Source: a virus
Lineage: Duplodnaviria > Heunggongvirae > Uroviricota > Caudoviricetes
DNA: 30,051 nt
Reading direction: 5' to 3' (one strand)
IMG/VR virus record: IMGVR_UViG_3300017691_000005
Span: 1-30,051 of that record
Of this stretch, positions 2,031 to 11,878 are shown piece by piece. Each line of letters begins with the position of its first letter. Within the stretch, counting starts at the first letter, position 1. The position numbers and the translations under genes are program-made. The notes under the pieces were generated by a model. The model searched no databases. It was not told the DNA's origin and was given only the letters and a program-made list of their open reading frames with translations.

Positions 2031-2428
2031 TCGTTTTTTACAGCCTACACGAAAACACCCGCCGGTTTGTGGATAAGTTGGATGTTGAGTCGGTAAGGAT
2101 TCCATCTAATCGAGATCAAAAGATCGTAGTGGACAAGCCTTACATCTTGATCACTCCAACTTATTCCGGGGGCAGACCCCCCAAACCTGTGTCTCAATTC
2201 CTTAATGACAAACAAAACCGTCCTCTCATGGATGGTGTCATTGGGGCAGGTAATCGCGGGTTTGGCCGAGAATTTGCATTAGCAGCAGATGTCATTAGCA
2301 TTAAATGCTCAGTTCCTTTGTTATACAAGTTTGAGATTATGGGAACGACACAAGACGTAAAGAAAATACAAGAAGGGATTGACAAATGGTGGATACAACA
2401 CGCGAAAAGACAAATTACATCCAACTGA
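2027..2428 (+). CDS. nrdI: NrdI flavodoxin (class Ib RNR cofactor assembly)
   Basis: S-x-x-ENTRRFVDKL, LITPTYSGG, GVIGAGNRGFGREFALA and PLLYKFEIMGT are NrdI motifs. ATGA overlap with nrdH. Confidence 0.93.
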   Translation: MIVFYSLHENTRRFVDKLDVESVRIPSNRDQKIVVDKPYILITPTYSGGRPPKPVSQFLNDKQNRPLMDGVIGAGNRGFGREFALAADVISIKCSVPLLYKFEIMGTTQDVKKIQEGIDKWWIQHAKRQITSN

Positions 2429-4512
2429 ATGCCATGGTAAAGCGCTATGACGCTGAGGGCAAGATGCAATTGGATAAAGATAAAGAGGCGGCGAGAGCCT
2501 ATTTCCTCAACCACGTAAACTCAAATACGGTCTTTCATCATGACCTAGAAGAAAAGTTGAATTTTCTATGGGACAATGAATATTACGAAAGAGAACTCTT
2601 TGATCAATACAGTTTTGCTTTTGTTAAAGATCTCTACAAAGCCGCTTACGCAAAAAAGTTTAGATTCCAGTCATTCGCCGGTGCATTTCAGTTTTACAAC
2701 CAATATGCACTGAAGACGTTTGACGGAGAAAGATATCTTGAAAGATACGAAGATCGAATTGTTGCTAACGCCCTCCTACTTGGAGGCGGGGATGAAAAAC
2801 TAGCAACAAAGATCATGGAAGAAGTCATTAGTAACAGGTACCAGCCTGCTACCCCAACATTCCTCAATGCTGGACGTAAGCAACGTGGAAGTTATGTTTC
2901 GTGTTATTTGATTGAAGTTTCGGATGATCTCAACAGCATTGGTAGATCAATTAACTCCGCTTTGCAATTATCTAAGAATGGTGGAGGTGTCGCCCTCAAC
3001 CTTTCTAACTGTAGAGCACTTGGAGATGAAATTAAGGGAATTAAGGGTGCTGCTTCAGGAGTAAGACCTATTGCTAAACTCTACGAAGACTCCTTCTCTT
3101 ATGCCAATCAGTTAGGCGCGCGTCAAGGCGCGGGTGCTGCTTATTTGAGCGCTCATCATTTAGATGTTCTTGACTTCCTCCAAATGAGACGCATCACGGC
3201 GGGCGATGAAAAGAATCGTCTGAAGACTCTTAACATCGGTATTGTTGTTTCTGACATCACTATGGAATTATTCAAGAACAATGAAGACATGTATATGTTC
3301 AGTCCTTATGATGTATCCAAAAAATATGGTATTCCTTTTGCTGACGTCAACATGACTGAGAAGTATCGTGAACTTGTCGATGATCCAAACATCCGTAAGG
3401 AGAAGATCAACGCTAGAGATTTCTGGAAGATTATTGCTCTTACTCAGTCTGAATCAGGCTTGCCATATGTTCTTTTTGAGGACACAGCAAATCGTGGTAA
3501 CCCCATTCCCGGTAAGATCAAGATGAGTAATCTTTGTGTTGAAATTGTCCAAGTTCAAAGAGGTTCAGTTCTTAATGATGATCAAACCTATCAGGACATT
3601 GGTCGAGACATCTCCTGTAACCTCGGGAGCCTAAATGCTGCTCGCATCATGGAGTCAGAAGACTTTGGGGCTGCGATTGACACTGCTATGCGCTCACTTT
3701 CATGGGTTGCCACTCACAGCGACATGACTGTGGTTCCATCGATCAAGGATGGAAACGAGAAAGCCCGCGCTGTTGGTCTAGGTCTTATGAATGTTGCCGG
3801 ATGGTTCGCGGAAAATCATATTCACTATGGATCGCCAGAGGCTGTAGAGGCTGCCGGTGTTCTAGCGAGAACGATCAACTACTATTCTCTTGTCTCTTCA
3901 GCGCAACAGTCTAAGGAAACAGGAGAAGTTTTTGATGGTTTCTGGCAAAGTAAATACGCCACTGGAGAATATTTTGACAAGTATCTAGATTCTGACTATG
4001 AATTTGCGTCAGATAAGGTCAAGAGCATTTTTGCTCATGTCAAAGTTCCTACTGCGAAAGATTGGGAAGCCCTCAAAATTCAAGTTGGTAACCAGGGATT
4101 GTTTAATCAGAACCGTCTAGCCCTTGCTCCAAACGGTTCTAGCGGATATGTCAATCACTCTGTTCCTTCATTCCTCCCAGCAACAAATATTGTTGAAGCA
4201 AGGAATTCAGATGTCATTGGAACTGTTTACTATCCGGCACCTGGCTTGACAGAAGAGACAAGAGAATATTTTAGAGACGGATATCAGGTCGGATGGAAAG
4301 GTGTTATTGACGTTGCGGCGGCATTGCAAGAGCACGTCGATCAATCTCTTTCTACAACTCTTTTCTTCCTCGACGGAGTAACTACTTCTGAGATCAACAA
4401 GGCTTACTACTACGCCTGGAAGAAAGGTCTTAAAACTCTTTATTACATTAGAACAAAGAATGATGCCCTTGCAGAAACTCAAGATAGAGGATGCGTGAGT
4501 TGCGAAGTATGA
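2386..4512 (+). CDS. nrdE: Class Ib ribonucleotide reductase alpha subunit
   Basis: 708 aa, no ATP cone. YQPATPTFLNAG, VSCY, FSYANQLGARQGAG, SNLCVE (N-x-C-x-E), ISCNLGSLN, TLYYIR and a C-terminal CVSC. Confidence 0.97.
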   Translation: MVDTTREKTNYIQLNAMVKRYDAEGKMQLDKDKEAARAYFLNHVNSNTVFHHDLEEKLNFLWDNEYYERELFDQYSFAFVKDLYKAAYAKKFRFQSFAGAFQFYNQYALKTFDGERYLERYEDRIVANALLLGGGDEKLATKIMEEVISNRYQPATPTFLNAGRKQRGSYVSCYLIEVSDDLNSIGRSINSALQLSKNGGGVALNLSNCRALGDEIKGIKGAASGVRPIAKLYEDSFSYANQLGARQGAGAAYLSAHHLDVLDFLQMRRITAGDEKNRLKTLNIGIVVSDITMELFKNNEDMYMFSPYDVSKKYGIPFADVNMTEKYRELVDDPNIRKEKINARDFWKIIALTQSESGLPYVLFEDTANRGNPIPGKIKMSNLCVEIVQVQRGSVLNDDQTYQDIGRDISCNLGSLNAARIMESEDFGAAIDTAMRSLSWVATHSDMTVVPSIKDGNEKARAVGLGLMNVAGWFAENHIHYGSPEAVEAAGVLARTINYYSLVSSAQQSKETGEVFDGFWQSKYATGEYFDKYLDSDYEFASDKVKSIFAHVKVPTAKDWEALKIQVGNQGLFNQNRLALAPNGSSGYVNHSVPSFLPATNIVEARNSDVIGTVYYPAPGLTEETREYFRDGYQVGWKGVIDVAAALQEHVDQSLSTTLFFLDGVTTSEINKAYYYAWKKGLKTLYYIRTKNDALAETQDRGCVSCEV

Positions 4513-5459
4513 TTTTTGAACCTATTAACTGGAATCGTGTTAATGAGACAGATAAGATGGTTTGGGACAAACTGAAGAATCAGATTTGGTACCCGGATGA
4601 ATTTGCGATAACTAATGATGTAAAGAAATGGAAAACATTCAATCGGGAAGAGCGCTGGCTTTTTATGCGTTTGTTCGCTGGCCTAACTCTTCTCGATACA
4701 TTGCAAGCGGAATATGGAGCACCTTCTCTAGAAGTTGATGCTAGAACTAAAGAGGAGAGAGCCGTCTATAAGAACATTGGTTTTATGGAAGAGATTCACG
4801 CTGAGTCTTATTCCTATATGTTCCAAACACTCGGAGCAACTGACGAAATGGACGCTGCCTTTAGATGGGCGGCTGAGAATCCAGAACTTCAGGCTAAGGC
4901 TGCTCTTATTCACAGTTACTACATGGGAGATGACCCGCTTAAGAAGAGAATTGTTTCTACTCTTCTTGAGTCCTTTCTCTTCTTCACGGGGTTCTGGTAT
5001 ATCCTTTATCTCAACGGATACCACCAGAAACTGACAAATTGTGGAGATTGCGTAAGAGCGATCATCAAAGACGAAACAATCCATGGATTTTATATTGGCC
5101 TTAAATTTCAAGACCTGTTTAGTGAATTAGATGCTCAGAAGAAAGAATATTACCAAGATTGGGCATCCGAAAAGGTTGACGAACTTTATGCTATCGAGGT
5201 TAAATATACCCAAGATCTGTTTGATTCATTTGGCCTTACTGAAGATGTCAAGAAGTTCGTTCGATGGAACGGAAACAAGGCTCTACAAAACCTCGGATTC
5301 ACTGCTTTGTTTGTTCACGAAGATCTTGATCCTGTTATTGAGAATCAATTAAACATCGAGGGTGTCACAAAGGACATCTTTACGGGTAAAAGTAATTATT
5401 CAAAGATTAAAGAATCAGCGATTGATGATTCATTCTTTGATGACTTAGATGATATGTAA
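4509..5459 (+). CDS. nrdF: Class Ib ribonucleotide reductase beta subunit
   Basis: INWN start, LTLLDTLQ, FMEEIHAESY (metal ligands and radical Tyr), LLESFLF, DETIH. ATG 4509 overlaps the nrdE stop (ATGA). Confidence 0.96.
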   Translation: MIFEPINWNRVNETDKMVWDKLKNQIWYPDEFAITNDVKKWKTFNREERWLFMRLFAGLTLLDTLQAEYGAPSLEVDARTKEERAVYKNIGFMEEIHAESYSYMFQTLGATDEMDAAFRWAAENPELQAKAALIHSYYMGDDPLKKRIVSTLLESFLFFTGFWYILYLNGYHQKLTNCGDCVRAIIKDETIHGFYIGLKFQDLFSELDAQKKEYYQDWASEKVDELYAIEVKYTQDLFDSFGLTEDVKKFVRWNGNKALQNLGFTALFVHEDLDPVIENQLNIEGVTKDIFTGKSNYSKIKESAIDDSFFDDLDDM

Positions 5460-5533: not shown

Positions 5534-5659
5534 ATGGGTAAAACATTCGTAAGCGAAACAGATAACGAAGAATATGAAGTCATCGACCCTGATGATTTCG
5601 ACAACTTTGACGAAGTAGATTCGACAACTGTTGACAGCGCGAAAGGTGCTCCTGCTTGA
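5534..5659 (+). CDS. 41-aa acidic peptide: MGKTFVSETDNEEYEVIDPDDFDNFDEVDSTTVDSAKGAPA
   Basis: Manually translated; below the ORF-track cutoff. Fills the gap between terminator and lysin, and its TGA overlaps the endolysin ATG (TGATG). Confidence 0.65.
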   Translation: MGKTFVSETDNEEYEVIDPDDFDNFDEVDSTTVDSAKGAPA

Positions 5660-6603
5660 TGGCTAAAAGCCAAAACGGTTGGAGTGCTAACGATCGTTCT
5701 GTAATTGCGTCATACTCACTACCCGGCGGTAAAGTATCACTAAGAAAAGGTGATGTTTCCGTAATTCTTCTCCATGCTGCAAATAGATGGCATAACGAAG
5801 TTGGTAAATTAGAGTGGCCGGGAATTTGGGGGTATGCCGAAAGACCTATTAGGGGTTCTACCACAACCCTTTCTAATCACGCTTCAGGTACAGCAATAGA
5901 CTGTAATGCGCCTAAACACCCATTGGGCGTACCGATTAGCAAATGCTTTACCGCAGCGCAAATAAAAAAGATAAGAGAAATTGTAAAATATTACGAAGGT
6001 GTTATTCGCTGGGGTGGAGAATACTCTCGTCCTGATGGTATGCACCTTGAAATCAACAAAGGTGCAAGTGAAGTTAAACGAATAGCAGACAAAATTCGTA
6101 ATGACATGTTCAATGCGACTGTCAAAGGTACTGTAGGAACTAATGCTAGTACTAAAAACAGTACTGATAAAAGAGTTCCTGATACATTACCAGTAATCCG
6201 TCAGGGAGATAAAAGCCCCTGGGTCGGTTTAATGCAGAAGGCTTTGAACTTCAACTCAAAAGATATTGATGAGAATTTTGGACCAGGTACAAAGACAGCC
6301 CTTGTGGCTCACCAAACAGCATCCAAAATAGGCCCTGATGGAGTTTGCGGGCAATTGAGTTGGGCGTCCCTCATTTCTAGATGGGGAGACTTGCAAATAG
6401 GCTCTAAAAACCCTGGTGTCGAGATTGTTCAGAACTTTGTTGGTTTTAGAGGTAAAGAATGTGATGGCGATTTTGGTCCTGCGACAAAGGCTAGAGTCCA
6501 AGCCGTTCAAAGATGGGCCGGTCTAAGTGATGATGGTGTTGTTGGAAATGACACCAGAAAAGCATTTGCCGGACTAGTAAAACCTTTGACAACTTCAGCC
6601 TAA
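5659..6603 (+). CDS. Endolysin: N-terminal M15-family Zn peptidase plus two PGBD-like cell-wall binding domains
   Basis: SNHASGTAID and DGMH peptidase motifs. Two repeats of the L-x-x-G...V-x-x-x-Q...DG-x-FGP-x-T...Q...DGVxG type. Confidence 0.92.
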   Translation: MAKSQNGWSANDRSVIASYSLPGGKVSLRKGDVSVILLHAANRWHNEVGKLEWPGIWGYAERPIRGSTTTLSNHASGTAIDCNAPKHPLGVPISKCFTAAQIKKIREIVKYYEGVIRWGGEYSRPDGMHLEINKGASEVKRIADKIRNDMFNATVKGTVGTNASTKNSTDKRVPDTLPVIRQGDKSPWVGLMQKALNFNSKDIDENFGPGTKTALVAHQTASKIGPDGVCGQLSWASLISRWGDLQIGSKNPGVEIVQNFVGFRGKECDGDFGPATKARVQAVQRWAGLSDDGVVGNDTRKAFAGLVKPLTTSA

Positions 6604-6615
6604 TAGTTATACAAT
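6586..6615 (+). promoter_or_regulatory. Strong sigma70/SigA-type promoter overlapping the endolysin 3' end
   Basis: TTGACA(6586-91)-18-TACAAT(6610-15). Predicted start at A6622. Confidence 0.7.
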
Positions 6616-6621
6616 ATCCAT

Positions 6622-6752
6622 ATCATACCGAGTCCGTGGTATGAGACGGGAATGGAAGTGTTACGCCATTCGTTGTGCAGGATATAGGAATTGTGGTTTC
6701 TTATCTTAGGATGGAATTAGTTACCAAAAACCCCGCTTCGGCGGGGTTTTTG
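6622..6752 (+). ncRNA. Candidate ~130-nt structured small RNA
   Basis: Bracketed by a promoter and a terminator. Three internal hairpins (6623-44, 6650-71, 6679-6707); G-U pairs favour the plus strand. No ORF with a convincing SD. Confidence 0.55.
6726..6751 (+). terminator. Intrinsic terminator with a C(UUCG)G tetraloop
   Basis: AAAAACCCCGC-TTCG-GCGGGGTTTTT. Confidence 0.92.
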
Positions 6753-6777
6753 TTTTATACTCTTTATCAATTATTAT
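6750..6777 (+). promoter_or_regulatory. Candidate promoter for a leaderless transcript starting at ATG 6784
   Basis: TTGTTT-16-TATTAT (overlapping TATAAT at 6775-80). ATG lies 7 nt after TATTAT; no SD. Confidence 0.55.
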
Positions 6778-6783
6778 AATAAG

Positions 6784-7071
6784 ATGGTGAAGGAAAGAGC
6801 GGCCAGAATAATAGACGGCAAGATACTAGAGTCTGTCGTACCTGACGAAATTCTTCGAAAAGTACAGGCTGACGTTTTATATCTTAAGCCGAACATATTT
6901 ATTCAAACCACTCCTGCGTCTACTTGGATTGTTAACCATAATTTAGGCAGACTTCCATTAGTCAATGTTTTTGTTGGCAATGACCAAGTAGATACAGATA
7001 TTATTGTTACAGATAATCAAATAACCGTAGTATTCCCCAGCCCTCTTGCTGGTAAAATTTCATATACTTAG
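6784..7071 (+). CDS. Small virion structural/fibre-associated protein
   Basis: WIVNHNLGRLPLVNV motif; a similar VTHNLGTRDV motif occurs in the next gene. Confidence 0.65.
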   Translation: MVKERAARIIDGKILESVVPDEILRKVQADVLYLKPNIFIQTTPASTWIVNHNLGRLPLVNVFVGNDQVDTDIIVTDNQITVVFPSPLAGKISYT

Positions 7072-11539: not shown

Positions 11540-11878
11540 ATGTCACAGACAAATATCAAAGAAATAGAACAGACTAATCTAGGGGTCTACGTTTGGAGAA
11601 CTGATGATGGCAAGGTTGTCGGAGATGAAGATGGCAATTACATGCTTATTGCTTCTGCTAAAGGTGACCAGAGAAAGATAGACGCTTTGCAAAAAGCGGC
11701 TCGATCATATGGCATTGAGGGCGGACGCCCCGAGTTTCGCGCTGGCTCTAGACCCATTAGTCAGGCTGAGTGGGAAGAGCAACGTGCTAGACAAAACGAT
11801 GGCTATGTGCCAGACCCATACGACTTAGGCAACCTACTAGATGAGTACCGTTTTTCCAAGGAGAAGAATAAGCAGTGA
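11540..11878 (+). CDS. Conserved-looking hypothetical protein preceding the portal gene
   Basis: LGVYVW...DGK...GNY...KIDALQKAARSYG...RPISQAEWEEQ. ATG 11540 preferred over TTG 11534. Confidence 0.75.
   Translation: MSQTNIKEIEQTNLGVYVWRTDDGKVVGDEDGNYMLIASAKGDQRKIDALQKAARSYGIEGGRPEFRAGSRPISQAEWEEQRARQNDGYVPDPYDLGNLLDEYRFSKEKNKQ

Follow-up and report, generated by a model that had tools for sequence, protein, structure and literature searches.

A phage small-RNA cassette predicted to encode an antisense copy of 23S rRNA helices 69-72

What might a tailed phage do with a short non-coding unit lodged between its endolysin gene and its structural genes? The question is posed by the virus record IMGVR_UViG_3300017691_000005 (Caudoviricetes), of which we analysed the first 30 kb (30,051 nt of a 132,461-bp record; hereafter the window). 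A sequence-only reading of this DNA had placed a promoter, three hairpins (P1, P2 and P3) and a UUCG terminator at 6586-6752, as well as the segments CCGT (6634-6637) and ACGG (6646-6649), and proposed an abundant small RNA of unknown class. All of these elements lie at the positions given. The class can be narrowed: the RNA is recognisable as an antisense homologue of helices 69-72 of 23S ribosomal RNA (rRNA). Judged by its sequence, the cassette RNA thus appears to be an evolved antisense copy of these helices, and we lean towards an antisense RNA acting in trans, through pairing with the host's 23S rRNA or its precursor. For two roles suggested earlier, antitoxin mimic and lysis regulator, we found nothing specific in favour.

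The family is undescribed, and for its proposed target no precedent has been described in phages. To our knowledge, small RNAs of phages are known mainly for effects on mRNAs, other small RNAs or phage development, and our literature searches found no published description of a phage antisense rRNA. If our reading is right, a virus-encoded RNA aimed at rRNA itself would constitute a new route to host takeover.

The cassette is complementary to domain IV of 23S rRNA

The likeness to 23S rRNA lies on the antisense strand and is detectable at the level of sequence only. In blastn searches, positions 6628-6726 were the sole match of the 132-kb genome to rRNA operons (71% identity over 106 columns, E 4e-5). 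The result was the same when repeated against ~70 rRNA loci, and no second rRNA-like element was found in the genome. Pairwise alignment shows the stretch to be colinear with antisense 23S. Positions in 23S rRNA are anchored on helix 69, which we take to be E. coli 1906-1924; in line with this anchor, m5C1962 and the UUCCU site at 1939-1943 fall on the right letters. Counting G.U pairs, the complementary runs measure 13 nt (6628-6640), 15 nt (6659-6673), 9 nt (6673-6681), 14 nt (6701-6714) and 9 nt (6718-6726). The predicted gain from heteroduplex formation with 23S rRNA is -67.6 kcal/mol, against -10.1 +/- 4.5 for shuffled sequences. The features of the cassette and its immediate surroundings, in window coordinates, are as follows.

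6586-6615, plus strand: promoter of the sigma-70/HrdB type (TTGACA 6586-6591, 18-nt spacer, TACAAT 6610-6615), with a predicted start near A6622
6623-6644, plus strand: hairpin P1 of the predicted fold (6623-6630/6637-6644), loop AGUCCG
6628-6726, plus strand: stretch homologous to antisense 23S, domain IV, from ~2010 down to ~1908 (helices 72, 71, 70 and 69)
6646-6676, plus strand: hairpin P2 of the predicted fold (6646-6655/6666-6676)
6673-6681, plus strand: junction UUGUGCAGG, the complement of CCUGCAC (~1961-1967)
6679-6707, plus strand: hairpin P3 of the predicted fold (6679-6691/6696-6707), with G.U pairs
6705-6726, plus strand: anti-helix-69 core, CUUAGGAUGG followed by AAUUAGUUACCA, the complement of 23S ~1908-1929, predicted to be mostly unpaired
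6725-6757, plus strand: intrinsic terminator (12-bp stem 6725-6752, UUCG loop, U-tract)
6772-6786, plus strand: -10-like box (TATTAT/TATAAT), directly 5' of the ATG of the next gene at 6784

The complementary runs are distributed over the whole predicted fold. The loop of P1 and its 3' strand fall in the patch 6628-6640, which complements ~1998-2010. The loop and 3' strand of P2 hold the 15-nt run, complementary to ~1966-1980, and P3 contains AGGAAUU, a remnant of the helix 70 complement.

None of the standard RNA classes accounts for the cassette. At the gathering threshold of Rfam 15 no family matched anywhere in the window, and with relaxed thresholds the best score was that of rnk_pseudo (37.5 bits, 55 required); most of the 28 matches listed overlap the terminator. 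The 23S-methyl motif RF01065 reached 14.9 bits (threshold 50) over the terminator, on the opposite strand. No small nucleolar RNA (snoRNA) family of Rfam matched at threshold, ARAGORN detected no transfer RNA (tRNA) or transfer-messenger RNA (tmRNA) gene in the window, and the covariance model for bacterial large-subunit (LSU) rRNA, RF02541, gave no match on either strand of the 132-kb genome even at E = 10. Two properties of the family that we propose are displayed by the cassette: its transcribed strand is complementary to 23S in colinear order to an extent not expected by chance, and it has transcription signals of its own together with RNA structure on that same strand.

Metagenome contigs were searched with a pattern of three phage motifs, which gave 67 matches with an identical 89-nt span among 76 stretches. 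In the three loci checked with Rfam (L022, L023 and L034; L numbers denote loci throughout) the pattern lies on the antisense strand of a bacterial 23S gene, and the fixed 23S core string is present in 65 of the pattern-matched loci. A blastn search of cultured phages with the antisense-23S core returned mostly rRNA contamination or chance matches of 17-22 nt.

Complementarity is what the phage family conserves

When window positions 6400-6950 were compared with cultured phages by blastn, only 6699-6753 aligned, as a 58-nt match of 86% identity in the Streptomyces phage Francob. This match falls in the gap after the endolysin gene, and the flanking coding DNA no longer aligns. In both Francob and a second Streptomyces phage, Mildred21, the last endolysin codons hold a promoter, which is followed by a structured stretch that shares several short motifs with the window and by a terminator. 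The Francob element in turn recovers ~118 records of cultured Streptomyces phages (cluster BE, Stanwilliamsviridae) with the element in the same syntenic place, none of which annotates it.

Further relatives came from a scan of IMG/VR with a portal profile, which gave 80 related loci; the endolysin gene and the 95-aa downstream open reading frame (ORF), used as IMG/VR queries, retrieved too few close relatives to use. A profile of the element finds it in 39 loci, representing 33 distinct sequences when the window is counted. Among the 51 portal-scan loci that reach far enough upstream, 26 carry the element, 2.26-3.0 kb upstream of the portal gene, and nothing convincing was found in the remaining 25. 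In every case the element sits on the gene strand and closes with a terminator. Weak matches ~4.5 kb upstream of the portal in relatives that lack the element were considered as diverged copies and rejected, as they represent a conserved coding region.

All 33 distinct elements score above shuffled sequences against antisense 23S in the transcribed orientation, and their reverse complements remain at background. The middle of the element has been deleted or rebuilt differently between lineages: cluster BE lacks the helix 70-71 part, and L113 joins GUGCGGGAAUUUC directly. GUGC, the core of the junction UUGUGCAGG, is kept in all lineages and GAGUCC in nearly all (L113 and L138 differ by one or two letters). 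Conservation is strongest in the 3' block (complement of ~1908-1930), where 7-8 of 8 lineages are identical to antisense 23S. Cross-lineage conservation falls on the positions that have the antisense-23S letter, and we saw no motif that is conserved across lineages yet departs from it, which argues that complementarity itself is the selected property. The anti-helix-69 core also has a higher predicted probability of being unpaired than the rest of the RNA (0.51 versus 0.36; Wilcoxon p = 6e-6, with related sequences treated as independent).

Transcription signals, structure and strand

The cassette reads as a self-contained, putative promoter-to-terminator unit of ~130 nt between the endolysin and the structural genes. 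Its promoter matches the consensus at 11 of 12 positions, the joint best score with two other sites in a scan of the first 12 kb. Its -35 box falls within the final endolysin codons, and its -10 box 3' of the stop codon. Since the scanned region holds 29 promoter-like sites where 26 are expected from shuffles, the promoter is credible because of its score together with its conservation in relatives, and not from the scan count alone. At the equivalent place we find TTGACA-18-TATAAT in L041, L009 and L162, and TTGACG-17-TACAAT in Francob and L163. One lineage (L142, L150, L138 and L119) has no clear promoter, and the RNA there would therefore be a 3' untranslated region (3'UTR).

Positions 6622-6752 fold with a minimum energy of -43.6 kcal/mol (z = -2.7; 1 of 200 shuffles folds equally well), and the terminator, with 12 pairs of which 7 are G-C, ranks first in a terminator scan of the first 12 kb. 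Beyond it, a TATAAT box stands ~7-9 nt before the downstream ATG in Francob, L011, L015 and L162, and a TATAAT-like box is present in every lineage read. This suggests a leaderless-type mRNA for the first gene of the virion module. With a -10 box of its own, this next gene would form a separate transcription unit.

The strand of the RNA is indicated by several lines of evidence. Promoter and terminator U-tract lie on the plus strand in the lineages read; the terminators of relatives covary strongly in their stems and have a U-tract on the plus strand only. In the consensus structure of 19 cluster BE elements (alignment A2), a hand count of the pair table gives 69 G.U cells and 4 A.C cells. The cells of this structure are paired in 96% of cases, a value attained by none of 500 shuffles; shifting the partners by 1-3 columns lowers it to 28-49%. 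The equivalent of P1 changes in step: it reads ACAGCC/GGUUGU in most cluster BE elements and ACGACC/GGUCGU in L114, which is outside the 19-row alignment, and in L099, which is part of it, the G.U pair becomes A-U (ACAACC/GGUUGU). The window shares P1, P3 and the terminator with its nearest relative L041, in which the P2 hairpin is kept with a different stem.

Both small ORFs that had been noted in the cassette exist (6641-6709, and 6675-6779 with an internal ATG at 6711). Both are broken in L041, with stops after 7 and 2 codons, which argues that the RNA is non-coding and that translation of a small ORF does not explain the cassette. The earlier proposal of a stand-alone non-coding small-RNA gene is therefore upheld by family conservation, by G.U pairs that are valid on the plus strand only, by the downstream gene's own -10 box and by the lack of any Rfam, tRNA or tmRNA match.

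The core matches the helix 69 form of the presumed hosts

The helix 69 form to which the core of the cassette is complementary reads GGUGGUAAC...CCAUCC. The genomes listed as having exactly this form, 80 in number, all belong to the Actinomycetota. The sole Bacillus-type 23S piece that we read, L097, has GGCCG...CGGUCC instead. An A/G variation in CUUAGG(A/G)UGG leaves the pairing intact through G.U only if it is the plus-strand RNA that lies on the rRNA.

A second, variable segment may also follow the host. The decamer at ~1997-2006 reads GGGCCUAUGG in Streptomyces and Kitasatospora (22 genomes) and in no other genus of the panel, and Streptomyces phages carry GCCUAUGG at the 5' end of the RNA. 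The window, L041 and a third lineage carry GAGUCCGUGG, a form seen in Phytoactinopolyspora, one metagenome-assembled genome and metagenome rRNAs. L138 carries the Nocardioidaceae form. Host tracking by this decamer is suggestive rather than firm.

As a separate observation, L097 corresponds to NZ_AP027888.1, a 2.7-kb record labelled as an E. coli plasmid that holds a Bacillus-type 23S piece (CCGCACGAAAGG). This record is probably a contaminant or a misassembly.

Anti-helix-69 sequences recur in unrelated viral contigs

Eight viral contigs contain a 20-mer complementary to the Bacillus-type (GGCCG...CGGUCC) helix 69, and just one of these is an rRNA gene. In five of them (L298, at 1901-1990, L299, L301, L302 and L304) the 20-mer begins a single base past the stop codon of an HK97-type capsid gene, and its hairpin displays the anti-loop sequence in the loop and is followed by a terminator. 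In L303 (1400-1560) it lies between a Q-antiterminator gene and a terminator. In L300 (1882-1901, minus strand) it sits in a tRNA island on the tRNA strand, where no terminator was seen. A terminator thus directly follows the 20-mer in two of three unrelated contexts. Two of these contexts gave no blastn matches in cultured phages. Judged by sequence and position, the unrelated 20-mers would be independent support for the antisense reading.

Proposed mode of action and points that weigh against it

From the anatomy of the gene, its strand, its conservation in the family, its complementarity and its match to the host type, we infer transcription, binding to 23S rRNA and a consequence for the ribosome as follows. 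Host RNA polymerase would transcribe the structured ~130-nt RNA from its own consensus promoter and stop at the intrinsic terminator. As the promoter has the housekeeping consensus, the RNA would be made early; it is probably also made as the 3' end of the endolysin transcript. The conserved and, by prediction, largely unpaired anti-helix-69 core just 5' of the terminator would then pair in trans with 23S rRNA, as might the further complementary runs of 13-15 nt in or beside the loops of P1 and P2. Helices 67-71 fold last in late 50S precursors. The likeliest targets would be nascent rRNA, late 50S assembly intermediates or, on free 50S subunits, the exposed helix 69. During infection, such pairing would change the maturation of 50S, its modification or the joining of subunits, and candidate outcomes include a block on the production of new host ribosomes, altered modification or subunit joining, and delivery of rRNA to decay. 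In E. coli, translation and growth are blocked by a synthetic peptide nucleic acid (PNA) directed at helix 69 (Kulik et al. 2017, as described in the citing article PMC12828698), so helix 69 appears, on that account, to be both reachable and sensitive. This PNA shares the proposed target site with the cassette RNA; it is a man-made oligomer, and the account concerns E. coli.

The proposed target is an inter-subunit bridge helix that is also a drug and antisense target. If the RNA acts as we suggest, it would represent a direct, RNA-based takeover or reprogramming of host ribosomes and a natural counterpart of helix 69 antisense antibiotics, and the element may show which parts of domain IV are targeted by a natural antisense RNA. 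It may also indicate the host lineage of uncultured actinophages, through a core of the Actinomycetota form and a decamer that differs between genera. As it stands unannotated in more than 100 cultured, publicly available Streptomyces phage records, these ideas are testable with ordinary phage and host strains.

Several points weigh against an antisense RNA directed at host 23S rRNA. Most of the target is base-paired or buried in mature ribosomes. For a phage with such an outlay on translation (28 tRNA genes), it seems a costly choice to inhibit ribosomes. The element is dispensable for phages of the window's type, given that about half of the sampled relatives lack it. The match of GCCUAUGG to the Streptomyces decamer spans only 8 nt, with an ambiguous alignment. 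The GAGUCC conserved in cluster BE does not fit the Streptomyces form of its 23S counterpart, and neither does the ancestral-type GAGUCCGGGUUG that the cluster BE RNAs retain. Finally, the identity of the window to antisense 23S is 88% at unpaired and 77% at paired positions (p = 0.2); as this difference is not significant, it is mainly the 3' core that supports the idea of seeds displayed in loops.

A wider proposal takes in the unrelated contigs. Here, several unrelated phage lineages would carry natural anti-ribosome RNAs, either as small transcripts or as 3'UTR modules, with an exposed sequence that pairs with the host-specific form of helix 69 and traps 50S subunits or late pre-50S particles, or passes them to a phage Ro60/Y-RNA decay machine. 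We regard this generalisation as possible and put it forward tentatively.

Alternative explanations

The rival that survives best, though we consider it unlikely, is a decoy or sponge, which retains a minor place from the sequence-only reading. In place of inhibiting ribosomes directly, such an RNA would soak up a host factor (an RNA-guided defence loaded with rRNA-derived guides is one example) or would tag rRNA for the phage Ro60/Y-RNA machinery. The genome does encode a TROVE (Ro60-like) domain (58275-59141, in a 584-aa open frame inside the tRNA island, outside the window), which may be linked to the handling of rRNA by this phage. In Deinococcus, orthologues of Ro60 take part in the maturation of 23S and in the decay of rRNA, and an abundant antisense RNA could absorb rRNA-derived guides. 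Set against this, the Ro60 locus is 50 kb from the cassette, we know of no defence system with rRNA-derived guides in these hosts, and a decoy would still require the same base-pairing.

A domesticated relic appears quite improbable. In this scenario, an inverted capture of host rDNA survives as spacer and terminator between operons, and its likeness to 23S rRNA has no function. The window copy is ~80% identical to antisense 23S at aligned positions along its whole length, paired and unpaired alike, as a decaying copy would be, and half of the relatives do without the element. A relic fits poorly with lineages whose portals are 45-55% identical and whose flanking genes cannot be aligned as DNA, and which nevertheless keep the same 20-25 nt of antisense 23S. 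It fits no better with a middle that was independently deleted or rebuilt while the complementary islands and the promoter were retained, or with the presence of an anti-helix-69 20-mer in unrelated phages, directly before a terminator in two of the three contexts described above.

Cis-acting control, to which we give little credence, would make the cassette a strong promoter and terminator ahead of the structural genes. Read-through would then depend on an antiterminator of the phage or, as in HK022 put, on the RNA itself. Promoter, ~130 nt, strong terminator and virion genes do reproduce the layout of the lambda late leader, and in L303 the anti-helix-69 motif stands exactly between the Q-antiterminator gene and the terminator. 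The Q-antiterminator families PF06530 and PF03589 were not found in the genome; a search with PF06323 gave no match there, nor did it in control genomes, which leaves that search uninformative. The downstream gene has its own -10 box directly before the ATG in every lineage read, and control in cis would leave both the complementarity to 23S and the match to the host type unexplained.

We think it very improbable that the functional product comes from the minus strand and mimics helices 69-72 in the sense orientation, as a decoy for an rRNA-binding enzyme, a toxin or an antibiotic. Mycobacterial MazF-type toxins cut helix 70, several drugs bind helix 69, and the window terminator is nearly symmetric. 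Yet the scan found no minus-strand promoter, the U-tract of the relatives is on the plus strand only, and the 69 G.U cells would become A.C mismatches. A sense mimic is also at odds with the failure of the LSU rRNA model to match at E = 10 and with the deletion of the helix 70-71 part in most lineages.

Least credible of all is a small peptide from the 22-codon ORF 6641-6709 or from ATG 6711, for although open frames exist and AGGAUGG resembles a Shine-Dalgarno sequence with AUG, the L041 frames stop after 7 and 2 codons with the RNA structure kept, and the Francob version differs except where the terminator loop fixes the letters.

Relation to known RNAs

As a putative antisense RNA acting in trans on 23S rRNA, the cassette RNA recalls CopA/CopT of plasmid R1 and RNA I/RNA II of ColE1. 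These antisense RNAs are likewise ~100-130 nt long, run from a constitutive promoter to an intrinsic terminator, form several hairpins and combine complementarity to the target over their whole length with an accessible single-stranded segment. They differ in being encoded opposite their own target and in controlling replication; the cassette RNA is trans-encoded on a virus, its complement is host 23S rRNA, and its complementarity is patchy, in runs of 9-15 nt.

A functional parallel may be drawn with the snoRNAs and small RNAs of eukaryotes and archaea (box C/D, H/ACA, U3), which also pair with conserved, functional and in part heavily modified sites in rRNA or pre-rRNA. Bacterial helix 69 carries pseudouridines and other modifications. 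Unlike snoRNAs, the cassette RNA is without C/D or H/ACA boxes, and we know of no snoRNA-like system in bacteria or phages and of no partner proteins of the cassette RNA.

In its position, the cassette resembles the lambda PR'-tR' 6S RNA and 3'UTR-derived small RNAs such as CpxQ and SroC, as a short terminated transcript beside late or lysis genes. The likeness to the CpxQ/SroC type extends to the terminator, which is shared with the upstream gene, and to the one lineage that is apparently without a promoter of its own. In contrast to the cassette RNA, 6S, CpxQ and SroC have no antisense-rRNA content, and the Q antiterminator of the lambda system was not found in the window's genome. RF01065 and the ribosomal-protein leaders that mimic rRNA are, like the cassette RNA, non-ribosomal RNAs related to a piece of rRNA. 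They are sense mimics that bind rRNA-binding proteins, whereas the transcribed strand of the cassette is antisense.

Genomic surroundings

The portal protein of the window, encoded at 11875, shares ~53% identity with the portals of Streptomyces cluster BE phages, among them Mildred21 and Francob. The window and these two phages share a gene order of glycosyltransferase, ribonucleotide reductase, endolysin, a gap of ~145 nt, virion genes and portal. In the window, the endolysin (ORF 5656-6603; Pfam M15 peptidase and PG_binding_1) lies directly 5' of the cassette and is preceded by a glycosyltransferase gene and then the large and small ribonucleotide reductase genes; fibre-like genes follow 3' of the cassette.

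Beyond the window, ARAGORN places the 28 tRNA genes of the 132-kb genome at 54623-75481 and finds no standard tmRNA in that genome. For cultured relatives in cluster BE, 39-48 tRNA genes and a single tmRNA are reported. In related phages of cluster BE1, uL24-like and bL12-like genes are present, with uL24 reported for the BE1 phage Riptide (PMC12509530). No match to a gene for ribosomal protein uL24 was found in the 132-kb genome.

A second promoter-to-terminator unit lies on the minus strand at 547-682 (TTGACA, 18-nt spacer, TATACT, 5' hairpin, terminator) and heads the leftward genes. The sequence-only reading had likened the cassette to an element at 646->547; the shared layout of TTGACA, 18-nt spacer and terminator holds, and there is no similarity in sequence. 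The minus-strand unit has no sequence homologue in the family loci and no likeness to rRNA.

Two observations concern the upstream genes. For the glycosyltransferase (720-1676), the Pfam family GT4-conflict (family 4 glycosyltransferase in conflict systems) scores slightly above the ordinary GT1 families. The large and small subunits of ribonucleotide reductase (2386-5459) are separate genes that overlap by 22 nt; at the same position, the annotation of Francob and Mildred21 shows a single gene of ~1.9 kb.

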